From the NCBI RefSeq assembly GCF_053078305.1, contig NZ_CP166879.1: DNA of 64,000 nt. The stretch is one strand, 5' to 3'. Below, piece after piece: positions 6,779-53,072 of this stretch. The notes beneath the pieces are model-generated. The model searched no databases. It had not been told where the DNA came from and saw only the letters and a program-made list of their open reading frames with translations. Within the stretch, counting starts at the first letter, position 1; each line of letters opens with the position of its first letter. The position numbers and the translations under genes were made by a program.

Positions 6779-7723
6779 TTATTTATACAGATCTGCGCTG
6801 ACGGTCAGGTTATTACCACGTTCCTGCCACTGGCGGGTGATGTGGTAATACTTAGCACCTTTCTTCGCGGCACGTTTCGCAACCTGATAGGAGACTTCGG
6901 TCATGTTGCCGTAGTTGCCAGAGAATTTGATGCTGTCGAACGGGACCATCATCGCTGCTGTCGCTTTGTTCAGTTCTTCGACTTTAGTGCCATCCGGGAG
7001 CGTGACGGTGTAACGCCCGCCTTTTGATGACTGGGTTTCAAAGAAGCGACCGACTTCAGAACTTGGTGATGCGGTAGTCGCAACACCCGGGATCTCAACT
7101 TTCTTCGCGGCTTCGCCACCGGCAGCCAGAGCTGCACGTCCTGCTTCGGAATCTGCCGGGATCACATCCGGGCTCTGGACGATACGTTTCTTAGCATCTT
7201 TTTTATAGATGAATGCAGTAATACGCTGGTTGCCGCCCTGGTTGGCATCGATTTGACGAACGATGTAGAAAGAGTAGGCACCTTTCGCTTTTGCCGCTTT
7301 GGTGATGGCATCATTGACTTCTGGCTGGCTACGATAGAAGCCCTGGACGGTGACCGTGTCAAACGGTTCAATCAGAACAGCCTGATCTTTCGGCAGTTCG
7401 ACAACACCGTTAATTACGCGATTACTTGTTTCTTCTGCTTTTTCAGCATCGGCTTTATAGAGGTCAGCGACCACACGCCAGTTACCGCTGTTACCAAAAT
7501 CAGAAGTGTCGACAACATAAAAAGAGGCGGCACCTTCTTTATCTGCGCGACGAGAAACGGCTTTCACCGCTTCGCCAATAGCATTAAAACGACCGGTAAC
7601 CACTACACGGTCAAAAGGTTTAACCGCTGCCGCTTGCTCCGGTGTCAGTTCTGTTGCTGCGTTAACGGAGAATGCCGTAGCAGAAAGCAGTGCCGACGCC
7701 AGGAGGGTGTTCTTAAGCTTCAT
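6779..7723 (-). CDS. ydgH: Periplasmic protein YdgH (DUF1471 repeats)
   Basis: 314-aa ORF with signal peptide and three internally repeated segments; synteny. Confidence 0.85.
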   Translation of the reverse strand: MKLKNTLLASALLSATAFSVNAATELTPEQAAAVKPFDRVVVTGRFNAIGEAVKAVSRRADKEGAASFYVVDTSDFGNSGNWRVVADLYKADAEKAEETSNRVINGVVELPKDQAVLIEPFDTVTVQGFYRSQPEVNDAITKAAKAKGAYSFYIVRQIDANQGGNQRITAFIYKKDAKKRIVQSPDVIPADSEAGRAALAAGGEAAKKVEIPGVATTASPSSEVGRFFETQSSKGGRYTVTLPDGTKVEELNKATAAMMVPFDSIKFSGNYGNMTEVSYQVAKRAAKKGAKYYHITRQWQERGNNLTVSADLYK

Positions 7724-8183
7724 AAAAATAATCCTTCGCCTTGCGCAAACCAGGTACTGGTATTGTTATTAACGAGAAACGTGGCTGATTATTGCATTTA
7801 AACGGTGTAACTGTCTGCGTCATTTTTCATATCACATTCCTTAAGCCAATTTTAATCCTGCTCAAATGACCGTCTATGCTTAAAAAACAGCCGTATCAGC
7901 ATCATTACTACTGAAGCAACTGAATTGTATAAGTTAATTTAATGTTAAGTAGTGATTCGTGCCGGGGCGATGTCTCGTTTTACCCGACCGTCGAAGACAA
8001 TTATCAGTCTTTATCCGGCGTTCTAAGGTGTTTATCCCACTATCACGGCTGAATCGTTAATATTTTGCGAGTTCACGCCGAAATACTGATTTTTGGCGCT
8101 AGATCACAGGCATAATTTTCAGTACGTTATAGGGCGTTTGTTACTAATTTATTTTAACGGAGTAACATTTAGCTCGTACATGA

Positions 8184-35077: not shown

Positions 35078-37597
35078 TTAAAAATCAGCCTGATTCGGGA
35101 ACAGTTTTTGCCAGATAACTGAAACGTATTTTGCCTGGTAACGCGCATCGTGCAGGGCATTATGGCGTTCACCCTCAAATGTGATGACGTTGCGGGCATC
35201 GAAATCCATCACCAGTCCCAGGGCAACAATCGTTCTTACATCACGATCGTTGTAGTGACGCCACGGGCAGGGGATTTCTTGTCGTTTATATGAACGGCTT
35301 AAAATTACGTTGTCGAAGTTGGCTCCATTTCCCCAGACCTGAACAAAAAACTCACCGGAGTTTTCGTCTATAAATTCCCGTAATTGTAAAAGCGCATCAT
35401 CAAGCGGTATTCGATCAGCTAAAATGGCGGCACGGGCTTCGCCAGAGCGTTGAAGCCACCATTCGATGGTGCTTATGTCTACAGTGCCACCACATGTATC
35501 CATATCAATTATTTTGCTGAATTCTGGCCCCAGTTCTCCGGTTTGCGGATCGAAAAAGACTGCGCCTATTGAGGCTATTGGTGCGTCAGGATTTTTGCCC
35601 ATCGTTTCAAGGTCAATCATCAGGTGATCCCACATTCTGCTGGTGGATGTGCTTTCACGATGACCGTTCACCTTAATTAAGGGATTTGCTGTCTCGCCTG
35701 TTTCATTATTGCCATTGGCATGTTGATCGCCTTCGGTGCACTCCTTGTTCGGGTGTCCGGCACTTTCCATTTCCTCCAGATCTTTTTCCCGGGCTTCATC
35801 CTGGCTTTCTTCGTTGAATGTCTCCTGGTATGTTGCGTCGCCCATCACCGCGCCACAGTCAGGACAGTTGCCGCCACCGCTCTGACCGCAGGCGGTGCAG
35901 ACTTTTTCCTCTTCCTGTTGCGCTACTGGTTCGGATTGTTTCGTTTCTGGCTCGTCTTGTAACGCATTTTGGCTGTTTTGTTCTGCTTTCTGGTCGTTCT
36001 GTTCCGTTTCTTGCTGGTTCTGGTTCACAGAATCGCAGGTTTCAATCCCCTTAACCCATTTCGAATCATTCGGGTCGCTAATCCCTTCAACAAACTCACC
36101 ACGGGAAGCGGCAAGCAATTTGTCGGCATCTGGTCGACTGATGTCTGCTGCCTCCATAATTTTATTTACTTCTTCAGCAGTAACTTTTACCTGTGACTTG
36201 TCATCCAGCGGCTGCGGGTCCTGATGATGTTCAACTGTATCCGCTGCCATTGTTTCAGCCGTTGCCTGTTCATCTGCCATTGCGCCAGATGGCTGCGGTT
36301 TTTCTTCATCATCCTGTTTTCCTTCTTTTGTTACACGCTGAGGGATAGGGGCAGAGGAGCGACCGCAGGCAATATCCACGATTTCCGGATCAGGGTTGGC
36401 ATGATCGGTTTCGGTCAGTACTTTGTTCAGATATTCGGTAACACGGTGGGGAGTAGCCTCGATACCAATTGGTGCTTCTTTCACGGACGCAACTACTATC
36501 GCGCGGGAATAATCCAGGTGACCAGGCATGGCGATGAATTTGTCACGAAAAACAGAAAAGGGCGGCTTATTCTCTGAAACGATTTCTTCAATGCGTTTGG
36601 CGTGTGCCGGATGTGGATTGTAAATATCGATGTCCATTGAACGGGCCAGAACGCCAGCGGCAACGTCACGTTCCACTGACGCATCATCGTGGACAAAACC
36701 TTCACCGCGATCGGTAAGAATTCCTCCGCCAGCATTAGCGCCGGACGGGGTGCGATTGATTTCAGATACGCAATTTCCCTTTGCCCACTCTTTTGTCAAC
36801 AGCCCCTGATCAAGGTAGTCAGTCTTCATCCAGGTGGAAATGAACTTGTCGAATTCTGCCGGGCTGATACGGCGTGTTGTTGCGTGAGTGAATGCCTTTT
36901 CCACCGAATGCGCCAGTCTTCCAAGATGATGGTTTGTCAGCTTATCCAGCTCAGGATGCGAACGTACTGCAGTAAGCAGGCTCTGTATGTTTCCATCTTC
37001 CATATCCATTTCGATGCGGATCACGTCCTTGCGTTGTTCTGGTGTGGCGTGATGTTTGTATTTCTCGTCGAACTCCTGACCAAAGAAGTAGAGGTGCAGG
37101 AAGCGATGGGTAAGACTCAGGGTGGAGACGGGGATTTCACATTCAGGGCAGTCATCGTTGCTGTCCGGGGATTCGCTTTTATCTGCGTTCTCTGTCTGAG
37201 AGTCACTTTGTTCATCGCAGTCACGGCTGACACCTGTAACAGCTTCGCCGCTGGTATTGTCAGTGCTGGCAGGTTTGTCCTGAGCTGAAGGGGAAGGAGC
37301 TATAAATATCATTGTGATACCATCTTCCCCGCCTTTTTCGTAACGGTTGCAGAATTCAGTATCAAACACGCCTTCTGGAGGAAGGTCATTCACAACGGGT
37401 AAATGGACGCGAACAGGTTTTTTAAAGTCGTCCTCGTCATAATCATTATCATCCATTGCGGTAATGCAGCGGGAGATGGCAACAGATAATTTTTTTGCTG
37501 TAGTCCAGTAAAAACCACCTTTAATCCCAAGGCGTTTTCTGACCTTGTCATTTTTTGCTTCGCAATATAGTGCAAAAGTTTCTTTATCAGTGCTCAT
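35078..37597 (-). CDS. Prophage exonuclease, 839 aa, with C-terminal DEDDh-type 3'-5' exonuclease domain (often annotated exodeoxyribonuclease VIII)
   Basis: C-terminal approx. 190 aa carry the exonuclease motifs (MIDLETMG ... NGANFD ... HNALHDARYQA); central region strongly acidic and low-complexity with a CxxC...CxxC pair. Confidence 0.6.
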   Translation of the reverse strand: MSTDKETFALYCEAKNDKVRKRLGIKGGFYWTTAKKLSVAISRCITAMDDNDYDEDDFKKPVRVHLPVVNDLPPEGVFDTEFCNRYEKGGEDGITMIFIAPSPSAQDKPASTDNTSGEAVTGVSRDCDEQSDSQTENADKSESPDSNDDCPECEIPVSTLSLTHRFLHLYFFGQEFDEKYKHHATPEQRKDVIRIEMDMEDGNIQSLLTAVRSHPELDKLTNHHLGRLAHSVEKAFTHATTRRISPAEFDKFISTWMKTDYLDQGLLTKEWAKGNCVSEINRTPSGANAGGGILTDRGEGFVHDDASVERDVAAGVLARSMDIDIYNPHPAHAKRIEEIVSENKPPFSVFRDKFIAMPGHLDYSRAIVVASVKEAPIGIEATPHRVTEYLNKVLTETDHANPDPEIVDIACGRSSAPIPQRVTKEGKQDDEEKPQPSGAMADEQATAETMAADTVEHHQDPQPLDDKSQVKVTAEEVNKIMEAADISRPDADKLLAASRGEFVEGISDPNDSKWVKGIETCDSVNQNQQETEQNDQKAEQNSQNALQDEPETKQSEPVAQQEEEKVCTACGQSGGGNCPDCGAVMGDATYQETFNEESQDEAREKDLEEMESAGHPNKECTEGDQHANGNNETGETANPLIKVNGHRESTSTSRMWDHLMIDLETMGKNPDAPIASIGAVFFDPQTGELGPEFSKIIDMDTCGGTVDISTIEWWLQRSGEARAAILADRIPLDDALLQLREFIDENSGEFFVQVWGNGANFDNVILSRSYKRQEIPCPWRHYNDRDVRTIVALGLVMDFDARNVITFEGERHNALHDARYQAKYVSVIWQKLFPNQADF

Positions 37598-37878: not shown

Positions 37879-38063
37879 TGCTGCCCCCCGAAAATACCAA
37901 GTTTAAGAAGGGCAATTCTGGAGAGTATGGAATTATCATTGAGAAGATAAGGCTCATATTTTCTCATCTTAATGGCATCTTCAGTAAACTCCCGGTTACT
38001 GAGCAGAACACCAATATCAAAACACCCTTCAGACGTATTAACGTTTGGTAATAACGTTTCCAT
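37875..38063 (-). CDS. dicB: DicB-like cell-division inhibitor
   Basis: 62-aa ORF METLLPNVNTSEGCFDIGV...FTEDAI... closely resembles K-12 DicB (MKTLLPNVNTSEGCFEIGV...). Confidence 0.7.
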   Translation of the reverse strand: METLLPNVNTSEGCFDIGVLLSNREFTEDAIKMRKYEPYLLNDNSILSRIALLKLGIFGGQQ

Positions 38064-38073
38064 TATCGCGTCC

Positions 38074-38631
38074 TCAACAATGAATTTTTAGTAATTGCTC
38101 CACAGTCATATTTTTAATTGCGCTCCGGTTTACAAGAGTCCAGCCTTGTTTCTCCAGATAAAACTGGAAGGTATCCAGGGTGCAGACCATTGCGCCGTCC
38201 GGAACGGTTTCAGTGAATTTGATATTGCCGTGTTCGTCGAGACGGATAACCAGGGTACGTCCGTCCCCGTGAATCATTTTGTCGGGAGACGGGGCGTTAT
38301 TCTGGCGCAGTTCTTTCTCCATGCGATCGAACTCAGCGATGTAGGCTTCTTTAAATGCAGCGGCTTTTTTGCCGGTGAAGCCCATCACCAGGAAAACGAA
38401 GCCGTTTTTGGTGATTTGGTACATGGGGCGTTTTTCGCCTTTGGCATCGGTGTAGGTAACCGACACAAAATTGTGTTCGTTAAAATTTGATGAGCAGTCT
38501 AAATTGCGAATTTTATCCAGTACTCGCTCGTGACGCTTACCAAAGAACTCTGCAATTGCAACAGACGTAGTGACAGCGCGACCATTTTTGATGGTTACGT
38601 CAGGGTGAGAAAGGGTAGGGATAGTAGCCAT
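38074..38631 (-). CDS. Rha-family phage regulatory protein
   Basis: Translation MATIPTLSHPDVTIKNGRAVTTSVAIAEFFGKRHERVLDKIRNL matches the Rha N-terminal motif; AAGAGG SD upstream; the track's longer ORF (to 38928) crosses a terminator-like hairpin. Confidence 0.6.
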   Translation of the reverse strand: MATIPTLSHPDVTIKNGRAVTTSVAIAEFFGKRHERVLDKIRNLDCSSNFNEHNFVSVTYTDAKGEKRPMYQITKNGFVFLVMGFTGKKAAAFKEAYIAEFDRMEKELRQNNAPSPDKMIHGDGRTLVIRLDEHGNIKFTETVPDGAMVCTLDTFQFYLEKQGWTLVNRSAIKNMTVEQLLKIHC

Positions 38632-38794
38632 AATGGCAGCCTCTTGGTTGAGTATTAATAACTCACCACCAAGGTTTTCCACGACCATAAGGGTGGTGAG
38701 ACGTACAGGGGTGGAAATACCGGTCAACCAAGAATCCGGCCAGCCTTGCGGCTGCCCTGCACGCCCCACCATAATCTGAATGTGGCTGTGCATT

Positions 38795-38823
38795 ACGCAT
38801 AAAAAAACCGCCTGAGCGCGGTT
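38795..38823 (-). terminator. Weak intrinsic terminator between the DicF-like RNA and the Rha-like gene
   Basis: Minus-strand AACCGCGCTCAGGCGG followed by TTTTTTT; stem only 4-5 bp. Confidence 0.3.
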
Positions 38824-39119
38824 ATGCGCTTGATTGAATTCCGGGTTTCCACGCCCGGCACCCGCTTTATGAGGTGCAGATGAACTATAATTCCACCCGT
38901 TCTGGTTTTCAATAGCTACATTCAACATTTTCTCTTACCCTTCATCACCGAAGTGAACTTTGTTGATGCAGTGCCTGGTGCCTCCAGGTGACGTTAACCA
39001 GTTAACAATTAACGCCGGAATACAGAAGTATGCCCGTTACGCCCCGTAAAAGACCACTTTACGGTTTTAACTGTTCCGCGTGCGCTTAGCCGCATTCACC
39101 GCATCACAAAATTCACTTT

Positions 39120-39177
39120 AAAAAGGGTGGCAGAGCAGTCACGGAGTAGAACTGATGCCACCAAAGACTACACATGG
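39120..39177 (-). ncRNA. dicF: DicF-like small RNA
   Basis: Minus strand reads ...GGTGGCATCAGTTCTACTCCGTGACTGCTCTGCCACCCTTTTT, near-identical to the 3' two-thirds of K-12 DicF including its terminator hairpin; 5' segment diverges. Confidence 0.55.
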
Positions 39178-39428
39178 GTATTGTGGCGGGGCTGTCACTT
39201 AAGCGTATGGTCAACCTGACAACCCGGTGCATTTTCTGGAGCAATGGAGGAAACCCCAGCCATACTTACCGCCGCGCCATTTCGCGGAGTGCCACAACCG
39301 GAAGCGCACGTTCGAAGAAATCTAACGACAAGCCTTCTAAGGGAAAGAGCTTCGCCGTACGCTTTCGCGTTATGCCCTGACTTTTCAGGGTAAATTAACC
39401 AGTGGCAACCTGTTTTTACTGGTGCTAA

Positions 39429-46094: not shown

Positions 46095-46385
46095 CCTGGC
46101 CTGAAGCATTAACAACGGTAGGAATTGCGATGGCGGTGGCGCTGGTGGTGTATTCGATTTGCCGCTGGGGATAAAAACGGTTTGCGGGAAAAGGAGAGTT
46201 AAGTAGAATTGCAGCGGGTGCTTGAGGCTATCTGTCTCAGGCATGAACACCAAAAGGCAGATAGAGAAAAGCCCCAGTTAACATTACGCGTCCGGCAAGA
46301 CGCTTAACATTAATCTGAGGCTCAATCTGTGAACGGCAAATCTAGGTTAGCCTCTTACGCGCCGAAAGGCAAGGAGAAGCAGGCT

Positions 46386-46541
46386 ATGAAGCAGCAAAAG
46401 GCGATGTTAGTCGCCCTGATCGTCATCTGTATTACCGTCATTGTGACGGCACTGGTAACGAGGAAAGACCTCTGCGAGGTACGAATCCGAACCGGCCAGA
46501 CGGAGGTCGCTGTCTTCACAGCTTACGAACCTGAGGAGTAA
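46386..46541 (+). CDS. hokD: Hok/Gef-family type I toxin (HokD-like)
   Basis: Translation MKQQKAMLVALIVICITVIVTALVTRKDLCEVRIRTGQTEVAVFTAYEPEE; upstream in-frame extension corresponds to the overlapping mok frame. Confidence 0.85.
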   Translation: MKQQKAMLVALIVICITVIVTALVTRKDLCEVRIRTGQTEVAVFTAYEPEE

Positions 46542-51757: not shown

Positions 51758-51833
51758 GGCCCTTTAGCTCAGTGGTGAGAGCGAGCGACTCATAATCGCC
51801 AGGTCGCTGGTTCAAATCCAGCAAGGGCCACCA
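51758..51833 (+). tRNA. tRNA with CAU anticodon, ileX-like (tRNA-Ile2 lysidine type)
   Basis: Cloverleaf GGCCCTTTAGCTCAGTGGTGAGAGC...ACTCATAATCG...GGTTCAAATCC...AAGGGCCACCA; close to E. coli ileX. Confidence 0.75.
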
Positions 51834-51842
51834 TATCACATA

Positions 51843-51919
51843 CCGCCATTAGCTCATCGGGACAGAGCGTCAGCCTTCGAAGCTGGTTGCGCGGGGTTCG
51901 AGTCCTCGATGGCGGTCCA
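51843..51919 (+). tRNA. tRNA-Arg (anticodon TCG)
   Basis: Acceptor stem CCGCCAT/ATGGCGG, anticodon loop CTTCGAA, T-loop GGTTCGAGTCC, 3' CCA. Confidence 0.7.
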
Positions 51920-51932
51920 TTATCGGTATTCA

Positions 51933-52009
51933 GCGTTGTTAGCTCAGCCGGACAGAGCAATTGCCTTCTAAGCAATCGGTCACTGGTTCGAATCCAGTAC
52001 AACGCGCCA
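51933..52009 (+). tRNA. tRNA-Arg (anticodon TCT)
   Basis: Acceptor stem GCGTTGT/ACAACGC, anticodon loop CTTCTAA, T-loop GGTTCGAATCC, 3' CCA. Confidence 0.75.
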
Positions 52010-52771: not shown

Positions 52772-53019
52772 CCGGGTATCAGTCATGCCCCGAAAATTTT
52801 AAATGTCTCACAATTCAGACGGTTGACAGTTGTCTGTTTTGCGGGGAGTTTGTTAAAAGAAACTGGCATGGTGAATCCCCCTGAGCGGAGGGGCGACTGG
52901 TGCATTAGGTGTTATCTTTGATACCTAGGAAAGTGAACGCGCGGGTTTGGTTGCACCGGGCTGAACTCACCGGGAGGCACCCGGCATCATGCGCATGATG
53001 ATACAGATACGCGGCTTTA

Positions 53020-53046
53020 GCCCCTCTCCGGAGGGGCTTTTATATG
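53020..53046 (+). terminator. Intrinsic terminator
   Basis: GCCCCTC-TCCG-GAGGGGC hairpin followed by TTTTATATG. Confidence 0.6.
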
Positions 53047-53072
53047 AATTTTGTAAGATATGAGTAAACTAA

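Follow-up and report, generated by a model that had tools for sequence, protein, structure and literature searches.

The locus raises a simple question, namely where its Rha-family gene begins, and behind it a second one, namely what the open stretch ahead of the gene encodes. In the window analyzed here (64,000 nucleotides of contig NZ_CP166879.1, NCBI RefSeq assembly GCF_053078305.1), a long ORF of 284 aa (38928..38074, minus strand, as are all features given below in descending coordinates) is named 'Rha family regulator' in databases and resembles an eta-like outer frame. Nested within it is a short ORF of 185 aa that carries the Rha domain (38631..38074) and whose start is probably controlled by antisense RNA. 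The earlier note, made from the letters alone, had described 99 open codons upstream of an SD-supported ATG at 38631. Both observations hold: the distance from ATG 38928 to ATG 38631 is exactly 297 nt (38928 to 38632), and ATG 38631 is preceded, at a distance of 8 nt, by the SD sequence AAGAGG (38645-38640). The ambiguity of the start that it pointed out is also real, as all database entries give the 284-aa long form, whereas the immunity-controlled start of the studied homologs is the SD-supported ATG. The homologs in question are anrP of Gifsy-1 and, by reported function and conserved start sequence, kil of P4 and icd of P1.

The 284-aa form was annotated by PGAP and has the protein record WP_044191340.1, which was the only form found among the protein database entries; no record exists there for the 185-aa form or for a 232-aa form. 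For ATG 38631, the anti-SD duplex energy is -5.8 kcal/mol (background, -2.6 +/- 2.6), and the values for the other two candidates are -4.6 kcal/mol (ATG 38928, a moderate site) and +0.4 kcal/mol (AUG 38772). These energies do not decide which of the three starts is used. The N-terminus of the short ORF, MATIPTLSHPDV, resembles those of P4 Kil (MATTLTPSHPEF) and of a P1-like Icd (MATIPTPTHPEF), and by sequence comparison the short ORF (38074..38631) occupies a position equivalent to those of P4 kil, P1 icd, and Gifsy-1 anrP.

A different picture emerged from the RNA-level analysis of the 99 codons, which hold two predicted RNA genes, a promoter, and antisense target sites that were absent from the earlier note. 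All of these elements fall inside the long ORF (38074..38928). The promoter is of the sigma-70 type (TTGAAA-17-TATAGT, 38912-38884, 10/12 consensus matches) and corresponds to PisrK of Gifsy-1 and PLE of P4. Its predicted transcription start, at about 38877, is the first base of a match to the Rfam isrK family, and in 72 of 76 relatives a TTGnnn-17/18-TAnnnT promoter of differing sequence is found equally far from the start of IsrK. ATG 38928 lies upstream of this internal promoter, whose -35 element is at 38912.

The first RNA is an IsrK/P4 seqA-like sRNA (38877-38801; Rfam isrK, RF01394, 68.4 bits for a gathering score of 50, E = 1.6e-13). Its predicted fold has two 5' hairpins, the second of which carries site a1 (38852-38846) in its loop; site b1 (38837-38828) comes next, and then an intrinsic terminator (38823-38801). 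Sites a1 and b1 are decoy copies of two further sites, a2 and b2, and are complementary to the elements a' and b' of the second RNA. The overlapping c4-a1b1 model (RF03163) stayed below its gathering score in the window (24.5 vs 46.7 bits). The terminator is the hairpin with a T7 run that had been noticed earlier: its stem, AACCGC-GCUCAG-GCGGUU, spans 38823-38806, and the last two T's of the stem open the run of seven (38807-38801). Taken alone, such an element is not above chance, as a scan of 3 kb gave 8 terminator-like sites where 3.4 +/- 1.9 were expected, but because it is the terminator of the isrK match we regard it as a genuine terminator-type element. The segment thus combines what defines an IsrK/seqA RNA, that is, a promoter, an intrinsic terminator, and a1/b1 sites complementary to a c4 RNA.

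That second RNA, similar to the c4/P4 CI antisense RNA, follows at 38776-38689 (Rfam C4, RF01695, 79.8 bits, gathering score 45). The match is full-length (model positions 1-87), and the segment folds as the family consensus does (-47.4 kcal/mol, z = -5.35). The recognition element b' lies in the loop of its hairpin 2 (38733-38724) and a' in the junction (38717-38711). Their complements stand just ahead of the short ORF: the target site a2 at 38682-38676, complementary to a', and the target site b2 at 38651-38642, which pairs with b' over 10 bp in the window and overlaps the SD of the short Rha ORF. In an alternative hairpin (38700-38662), the 3' strand of the c4 closing stem (38700-38692) pairs with GGUGGUGAG (38670-38662), and a2 is predicted to be presented in the loop. 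No further c4 target was found in the window, where the exact b2 10-mer occurs nowhere except at b2 itself and as the complement of b'. The 5' end of c4 carries a conserved AUG (38772-38770), which shares its frame with the Rha ATG.

The conservation of these pairings was examined in relatives. A BLAST search of phage genomes returned 197 records, in which homology begins exactly at the IsrK 5' end (query position 74, window 38877). Loci were gathered from seven annotated phages, one E. coli locus, and 120 viral contigs picked by the motif GAGGCTGCCANNATGGC, which fixes the SD and the ATG of these related sequences and leaves the upstream frame free. The module-bearing set comprises 78 distinct leaders and the covariation alignment 49, but these counts are not independent trials, because the viral sample was picked by motif and the sequences are kin. 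In the 49 leaders, the c4 closing stem and the two inner hairpins are paired in 100% of cells, with 10 pairs changed on both sides, and the b':b2 helix is paired in 93.6%, with 8/10 pairs changed on both sides. Pairing of a1 with a' (98.5% of cells) and of b1 with b' (88.5%) also shows changes on both sides, and the a2-presenting hairpin is paired in 97.5% of cells, with 3 pairs changed on both sides. For the c4 helices and b':b2, none of 500 shuffles came up to the observed values, and pairing in slid controls was 36-46%. Since a 3-nt indel shifts a2 in the alignment columns, a':a2 was scored by complement search instead, and 25 of 26 distinct leaders had a perfect 7-mer complement of a' in the stretch from c4 to b2. 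The terminator stems run out of register between leader classes in the alignment, and the terminator was therefore left out of the covariation claims.

The sites fall into 8 a-types and 22 b-types, which are freely combined. Cognate b':b2 combinations form a mean of 9.05 of 10 pairs, against 6.06 for non-cognate ones. Across the 49 relatives, the predicted c4 loops covary with both sets of target sites.

These elements are known from three systems. Citron and Schuster are said to have described, in 1990, the immI region of P1 and P7, where a c4 antisense RNA controls icd-ant. As in our window, P1 and P7 have a c4 with a' and b', upstream a1/b1 sites, and a2/b2 over the RBS of the first gene, and the specificity types covary in the way that P1 and P7 differ. 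In a P1-like phage, the same module precedes icd, whose product has the start given above. However, the regulated genes there are icd and ant, and the icd-phase frame reaches back only 195 nt, to a point inside IsrK, leaving no full-length outer ORF.

A like layout is found in the immunity region of P4, which comprises PLE, seqA, the CI RNA, seqC, and the nested genes eta and kil. In P4, a constitutive promoter lies inside eta, and its transcript is soon terminated via CI and seqA interactions and processed to CI; Kil is a truncated form of Eta; full-length Eta comes solely from a late promoter further upstream and is coupled to an alpA homolog, and its translation prevents the termination (PMC10111431, summarising Forti et al. 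1999). On P4 itself, the isrK/seqA match falls at 8692-8615, the C4/CI match at 8507-8420, and the long ORF in the eta frame at 8812-8168, with a nested kil of 65 aa. The window likewise has an internal promoter, a seqA/IsrK-type RNA, a CI/c4-type RNA, and a target over the RBS of a short in-frame nested gene, with a long ORF that starts upstream of the promoter. In both, the Ash profile covers this same segment and the nested gene starts with MAT(T/I)..(T/L)(P/L)SHP(E/D). The two differ in their cargo (a 65-aa Kil in P4, a 185-aa Rha-domain regulator in the window), in leader length (327 nt against 246 nt), in the long ORF, which in the window has its own ATG and is uncoupled from any alpA-type gene, and in the host element, which here is a Qin-like lambdoid prophage that carries its cassette between dicF and dicB.

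Is the 99-codon frame, then, coding? An ORF from ATG 38928 runs through the RNA module into the short gene and is open to 38074, as in an eta/kil arrangement. One could argue that the leader is purely untranslated, with an RNA module ahead of ATG 38631 as the only start in use and an open frame that is an accident of G+C-rich structured RNA, over-extended by gene callers. The frame statistics bear on this directly. In the ATG phase, 72 of the 78 leaders are stop-free from the IsrK start to the ATG, against 0/78 and 18/78 in the other frames, and the mean number of stops per leader is 0.19 against 3.67 and 1.68. Seven leader lengths were found (240, 243, 246, 282, 285, 288, and 327 nt), each a multiple of three, and multiples of three make up 71 of the 78. 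Across the 8 a-types and 22 b-types, there were no distinct in-phase stop events outside three frameshifted sequences, whereas the other two phases had 28 and 30. In addition, at about 45 loci, in many unrelated sequence contexts, the stop codon of a sizeable upstream ORF overlaps the first ATG of the long ORF (ATGA), and P4 eta is reportedly translated. All of this speaks against an accident of composition, and we conclude from these comparisons that the leader frame is, in all appearance, maintained by selection and not by chance.

The amino-acid level gives the opposite answer, one that would suit an untranslated leader. In the ATG phase, the leader pN/pS was 0.98 (9 sequences) and 0.85 (32 sequences), and the other two frames gave similar values; on the same 162 sequence pairs, it was 0.80 for the leader and 0.29 for the downstream gene. 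Differences in the leader are spread evenly over codon positions (0.36, 0.32, and 0.32), with no third-position excess. The leader thus shows no constraint at the amino-acid level. An untranslated leader would also fit with a promoter downstream of ATG 38928, with the in-phase stops found in Gifsy-1 and in 6 of the 78 relatives, and with the description of P4 CI as derived from an untranslated primary transcript. Set against the frame statistics, we nevertheless consider it improbable that the leader is purely untranslated. The choice offered by the earlier note, between an untranslated leader and a longer protein, is probably a false one: the leader does encode IsrK-like and c4-like RNAs, yet its frame seems to have been selected to stay open without amino-acid constraint. 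An open but unconstrained leader is probably the pattern of the nested P4 genes eta and kil.

Our preferred explanation is that 38632-38930 is the leader of an RNA immunity module of the P4/P1/Gifsy-1 type, which would control a Rha-family (Bro-network) regulator, with the frame kept open as in eta/kil. We hold this to be likely, and with it, as part of the same judgment, that the selected feature is the passage of ribosomes and not the sequence of the peptide. The putative parts, their order, their complementarity, and their conservation come from sequence and comparison.

The same data bear on the protein that databases describe. The 284-aa product matches Pfam Phage_ASH (PF10554) over aa 14-109 (59.1 bits for a cut-off of 26), and the short ORF matches Phage_pRha (PF09669) over aa 21-106 (107 bits for a cut-off of 29.9). 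Taken at face value, the main product would be a genuine two-domain Ash-Rha protein of 284 aa, and the RNA-family matches would be incidental; the Ash score, the long form annotated in all databases, and the Rha/Ash domain proteins listed in the literature all agree with this. However, within the window the Ash profile falls exactly on the seqA/IsrK-CI/c4-a2b2 segment, as it does in lambdoid phages, in P4, and in a P1-like phage, and it matches the equivalent stretch in seven phage ORFs. Purifying selection on the Ash peptide was not found in the leader comparisons, where pN/pS ranged from 0.80 to 0.98 and was equal across frames, against the much lower value in the Rha gene. The RNA covariation is overwhelming, and the RNAs have been experimentally established in Gifsy-1 and reported for P4. 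We therefore see almost no chance that a two-domain protein is the main product. A 2022 paper on Stx phages gives the Ash domain no assigned function, and from the sequence evidence 'Ash' looks like the translation of an RNA module rather than a constrained protein domain.

Where ribosomes would enter the leader is a separate matter, on which Gifsy-1 is instructive. It is the best-studied relative. In its isrK-orf45(STnc1160)-anrP region, an IsrK that has a promoter and a terminator of its own comes first, then a c4-like RNA, and then an antirepressor-type gene, which is the order of the window. When its sequence is aligned to the window module, numbering from the predicted start reproduces the AUG107 and AUG119 of the published work, and the compensatory pairs reported for it (G28-C162 and G31-C159; Hershko-Shalev et al. 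2016, PMC4825925) coincide exactly with a1:a'. The pairing is extended by G173 and C175, which pair with C18 and G16 of IsrK. The differences are as informative. The Gifsy-1 module lies after antQ, whereas that of the window lies after DicF, and its cargo is an ORF6N protein and not Rha (about 23% identity over a weak local match). Its ATG-phase leader frame has 3 in-phase stops, whereas the window leader is fully open. Finally, orf45 starts from the AUG at the c4 5' end (A107), runs in the +1 frame, and ends in an ATGA on the anrP start, whereas the homologous AUG of the window, 38772, is in frame with Rha; an orf45-type frame overlapping the antirepressor start was not found in the window. 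A 45-aa ORF at 38800-38663 had been considered as the orf45 of the window and was rejected, as the real orf45 starts at the c4 5' AUG.

It could be proposed that ribosomes enter at the c4 5' AUG (38772-38770) and not at 38928. Once IsrK opens the structure, they would continue in frame across a2/b2 and into Rha, giving a 232-aa isoform in what would be an in-frame version of the orf45-anrP coupling. Gifsy-1 orf45 starts at exactly the homologous AUG, and its translation is required for full anrP activation. Such a route would work with transcripts of the internal promoter. The AUG does not vary among 49 sequences, but this need not reflect coding, because it is also fixed by the c4 closing stem. 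From this AUG, the frame is open and in phase to the antirepressor ATG in 73 of the 78 leaders, including three whose IsrK part is frameshifted. On the other hand, the energy of +0.4 kcal/mol amounts to no SD upstream of 38772, and entry at this AUG leaves unexplained why the frame is open through IsrK and up to the coupled upstream ATGs. We regard this entry point as rather unlikely, although less so than a purely untranslated leader; it and our preferred explanation are mutually compatible. As Gifsy-1 lacks the long frame and uses orf45, the eta-like route is not universal. The Gifsy-1 and window routes differ, but in both, ribosomes would traverse a2/b2.

Upstream of the long ORF, the window carries a gene for a dicA-like HTH repressor (40179-39772), a DUF1391 gene, and the DicF sRNA (39176-39125; Rfam DicF, 61.1 bits), which is the arrangement of a dicB operon. 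The earlier note had likened the sequence of 38632-38930 to the region following DicF in K-12. This likeness fails for that interval, as the Qin prophage of K-12 has no counterpart of 38953-38089. The Qin alignment covers 39229-38954 (DicF and spacer, 81%) and resumes at 38088-37959 (the start of dicB, 89%). Both have DicF, the spacer that follows, dicB, and a ydfD-like gene in collinear order, but in K-12 the spacer passes directly into dicB. Relative to the K-12 dicF-dicB spacer, the window thus has an insertion of about 865 bp (38953-38089), consisting of 25 nt and the whole long ORF and flanked by AAARTTCA repeats. That the insertion takes in ATG 38928, starting shortly ahead of it instead of at the promoter, gives mild support to the long ORF as a part of the cassette. 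At least 80% of a query spanning 38000-39250 was found in 381 of 5426 complete E. coli genomes (about 7%).

Two further observations concern the spacer upstream of the cassette. A weak STnc100-like match (38959-39113, 30.8 bits, below the gathering score) belongs to this K-12-type spacer and not to the module. In addition, PGAP annotates a 'dicB pseudogene fragment' upstream of the long ORF in E. coli 7/2, which could have been read as the scar of an insertion into dicB; we rejected this, as the fragment is merely the open frame of the dicF-dicB spacer, with no start codon in the window.

Based on these comparisons, a pathway can be proposed for the leader of the RNA immunity module. The internal promoter (38912-38884) would produce the IsrK-like RNA from about 38877, ending at the hairpin and U7 run. 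Some transcripts would pass this terminator and give a read-through RNA that carries the c4-like RNA (38776-38689). By analogy with P1, P4, and Gifsy-1, c4 would be excised from the read-through RNA and pair with a2/b2. In light of the homologs, this pairing would mask the SD of ATG 38631 and promote premature termination, keeping Rha off in the lysogen, while the a1/b1 sites of IsrK would compete for c4 and could relieve the block. Because ATG 38928 lies outside them, transcripts from the internal promoter would yield only the short, c4-controlled product. The frame statistics and the precedent of P4 eta suggest that transcripts from upstream (the dicA-like region, through DicF) carry ATG 38928. 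Ribosomes that start there would cross the terminator, c4, and a2/b2 and make a long Rha isoform, whose expression would be insensitive to the RNA immunity. The weak points of the nested-gene part of this proposal are that ATG 38928 is uncoupled in the window, where no upstream gene overlaps it and the open frame just upstream has no start codon; that its SD is moderate; and that the DicF terminator would have to be read through first.

Joining the protein and RNA analyses, one may go further and propose that the Ash 'domain' carried by many Rha and antirepressor proteins, in lambdoid, Stx, P1-like, and P4-like phages, is no protein domain but the translated shadow of an IsrK/seqA-c4/CI leader, held stop-free and in frame solely for the transit of upstream ribosomes. 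The 284-aa Rha would then be an immunity-bypass isoform made only on derepression of the dicB operon, and the 185-aa form the c4-controlled product. We offer this joint reading tentatively, with a probability that we place slightly short of even.

The locus is a new copy of a known system: an E. coli prophage carries, within its dicB operon, a P4/P1/IsrK RNA immunity module that guards a Rha-domain gene. For annotation, this means that 284-aa entries such as WP_044191340.1 hide two predicted regulatory RNAs, a promoter, a terminator, and a start codon that is regulated in homologous systems. The analysis also yields evidence for the Ash 'domain' as an RNA leader that stays translatable but is unconstrained as a peptide. 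An open frame of this kind, kept without constraint on its product, provides a testable case of selection for ribosome transit and not for a protein. From a biological perspective, one module joins three lines of research (P1 c4-ant, P4 CI-eta/kil, and Salmonella IsrK-AnrP) and appears as a movable cassette, found between dicF and dicB in the roughly 7% of complete E. coli genomes counted above. Finally, the many covarying specificity types suggest that co-resident prophages keep separate antirepressor immunities.

In the Pfam comparison, the Phage_ASH (PF10554) match coincides exactly with the translated seqA/IsrK-CI/c4-target leader ahead of the Rha gene (38632-38928, minus strand). The same holds for the eta frame of phage P4 (8168-8812, minus strand, in the P4 locus), for seven ORFs of lambdoid phages and for a P1-like phage. 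The pN/pS ratio of the leader is about 0.8-1. The Phage_ASH "family" appears to have been built on RNA-coding DNA.

Regardless of which cargo the module controls, about the first twelve codons of that gene (38596-38631, minus strand, in the window) move together with it. The N-terminus is MATIPTLSHPDV in the window Rha, MATTLTPSHPEF in P4 Kil and MATIPTPTHPEF in the P1-like Icd. Downstream of dicB and a DUF1482 gene lies an ORF of 839 aa (35078-37597, minus strand) with long low-complexity, acidic stretches, whose homologue in E. coli 7/2 is annotated as "exonuclease".

Comparison with K-12 revealed an 8-bp direct repeat, AAARTTCA, at each junction of the ~865-bp cassette between dicF and dicB (38961-38954 and 38088-38081, minus strand), a pair that may mark a past recombination or insertion event. 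The DicF-dicB spacer (38959-39113, minus strand), also conserved in E. coli K-12, contains the hairpin CACCUGGAGGCACCAGGCAC and shows a partial, weak likeness to STnc100 in Rfam (30.8 bits, below the gathering score). A full-length match to the STnc100 sRNA (140.9 bits; 52837-53049, plus strand) comes after three clustered tRNAs, tRNA-Met, tRNA-Arg(tcg) and tRNA-Arg(tct) (51758-52009, plus strand), an arrangement resembling the tRNA island of a lambdoid late region. The window also carries a hok/sok-type sok antitoxin RNA (46216-46391, plus strand; Rfam, 109.7 bits).

Among the comparison loci, IMGVR_UViG_2690316316_000015 (6897-7800) holds a tandem pair of isrK-c4 modules spaced 656 bp apart, whose specificities differ (a = GTCGCAG with b = TGTCAACGG versus a = TTGGCGT with b = TGTTATCGG). 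In a near relative of the window leader, locus L121 (5044-5290, minus strand), the U-tract of the IsrK terminator is T8 rather than the T7 of the window, and because of this replacement the long ORF is frameshifted and meets two in-phase stops. Homopolymer slippage in the U-tract of the IsrK terminator could toggle the outer frame.
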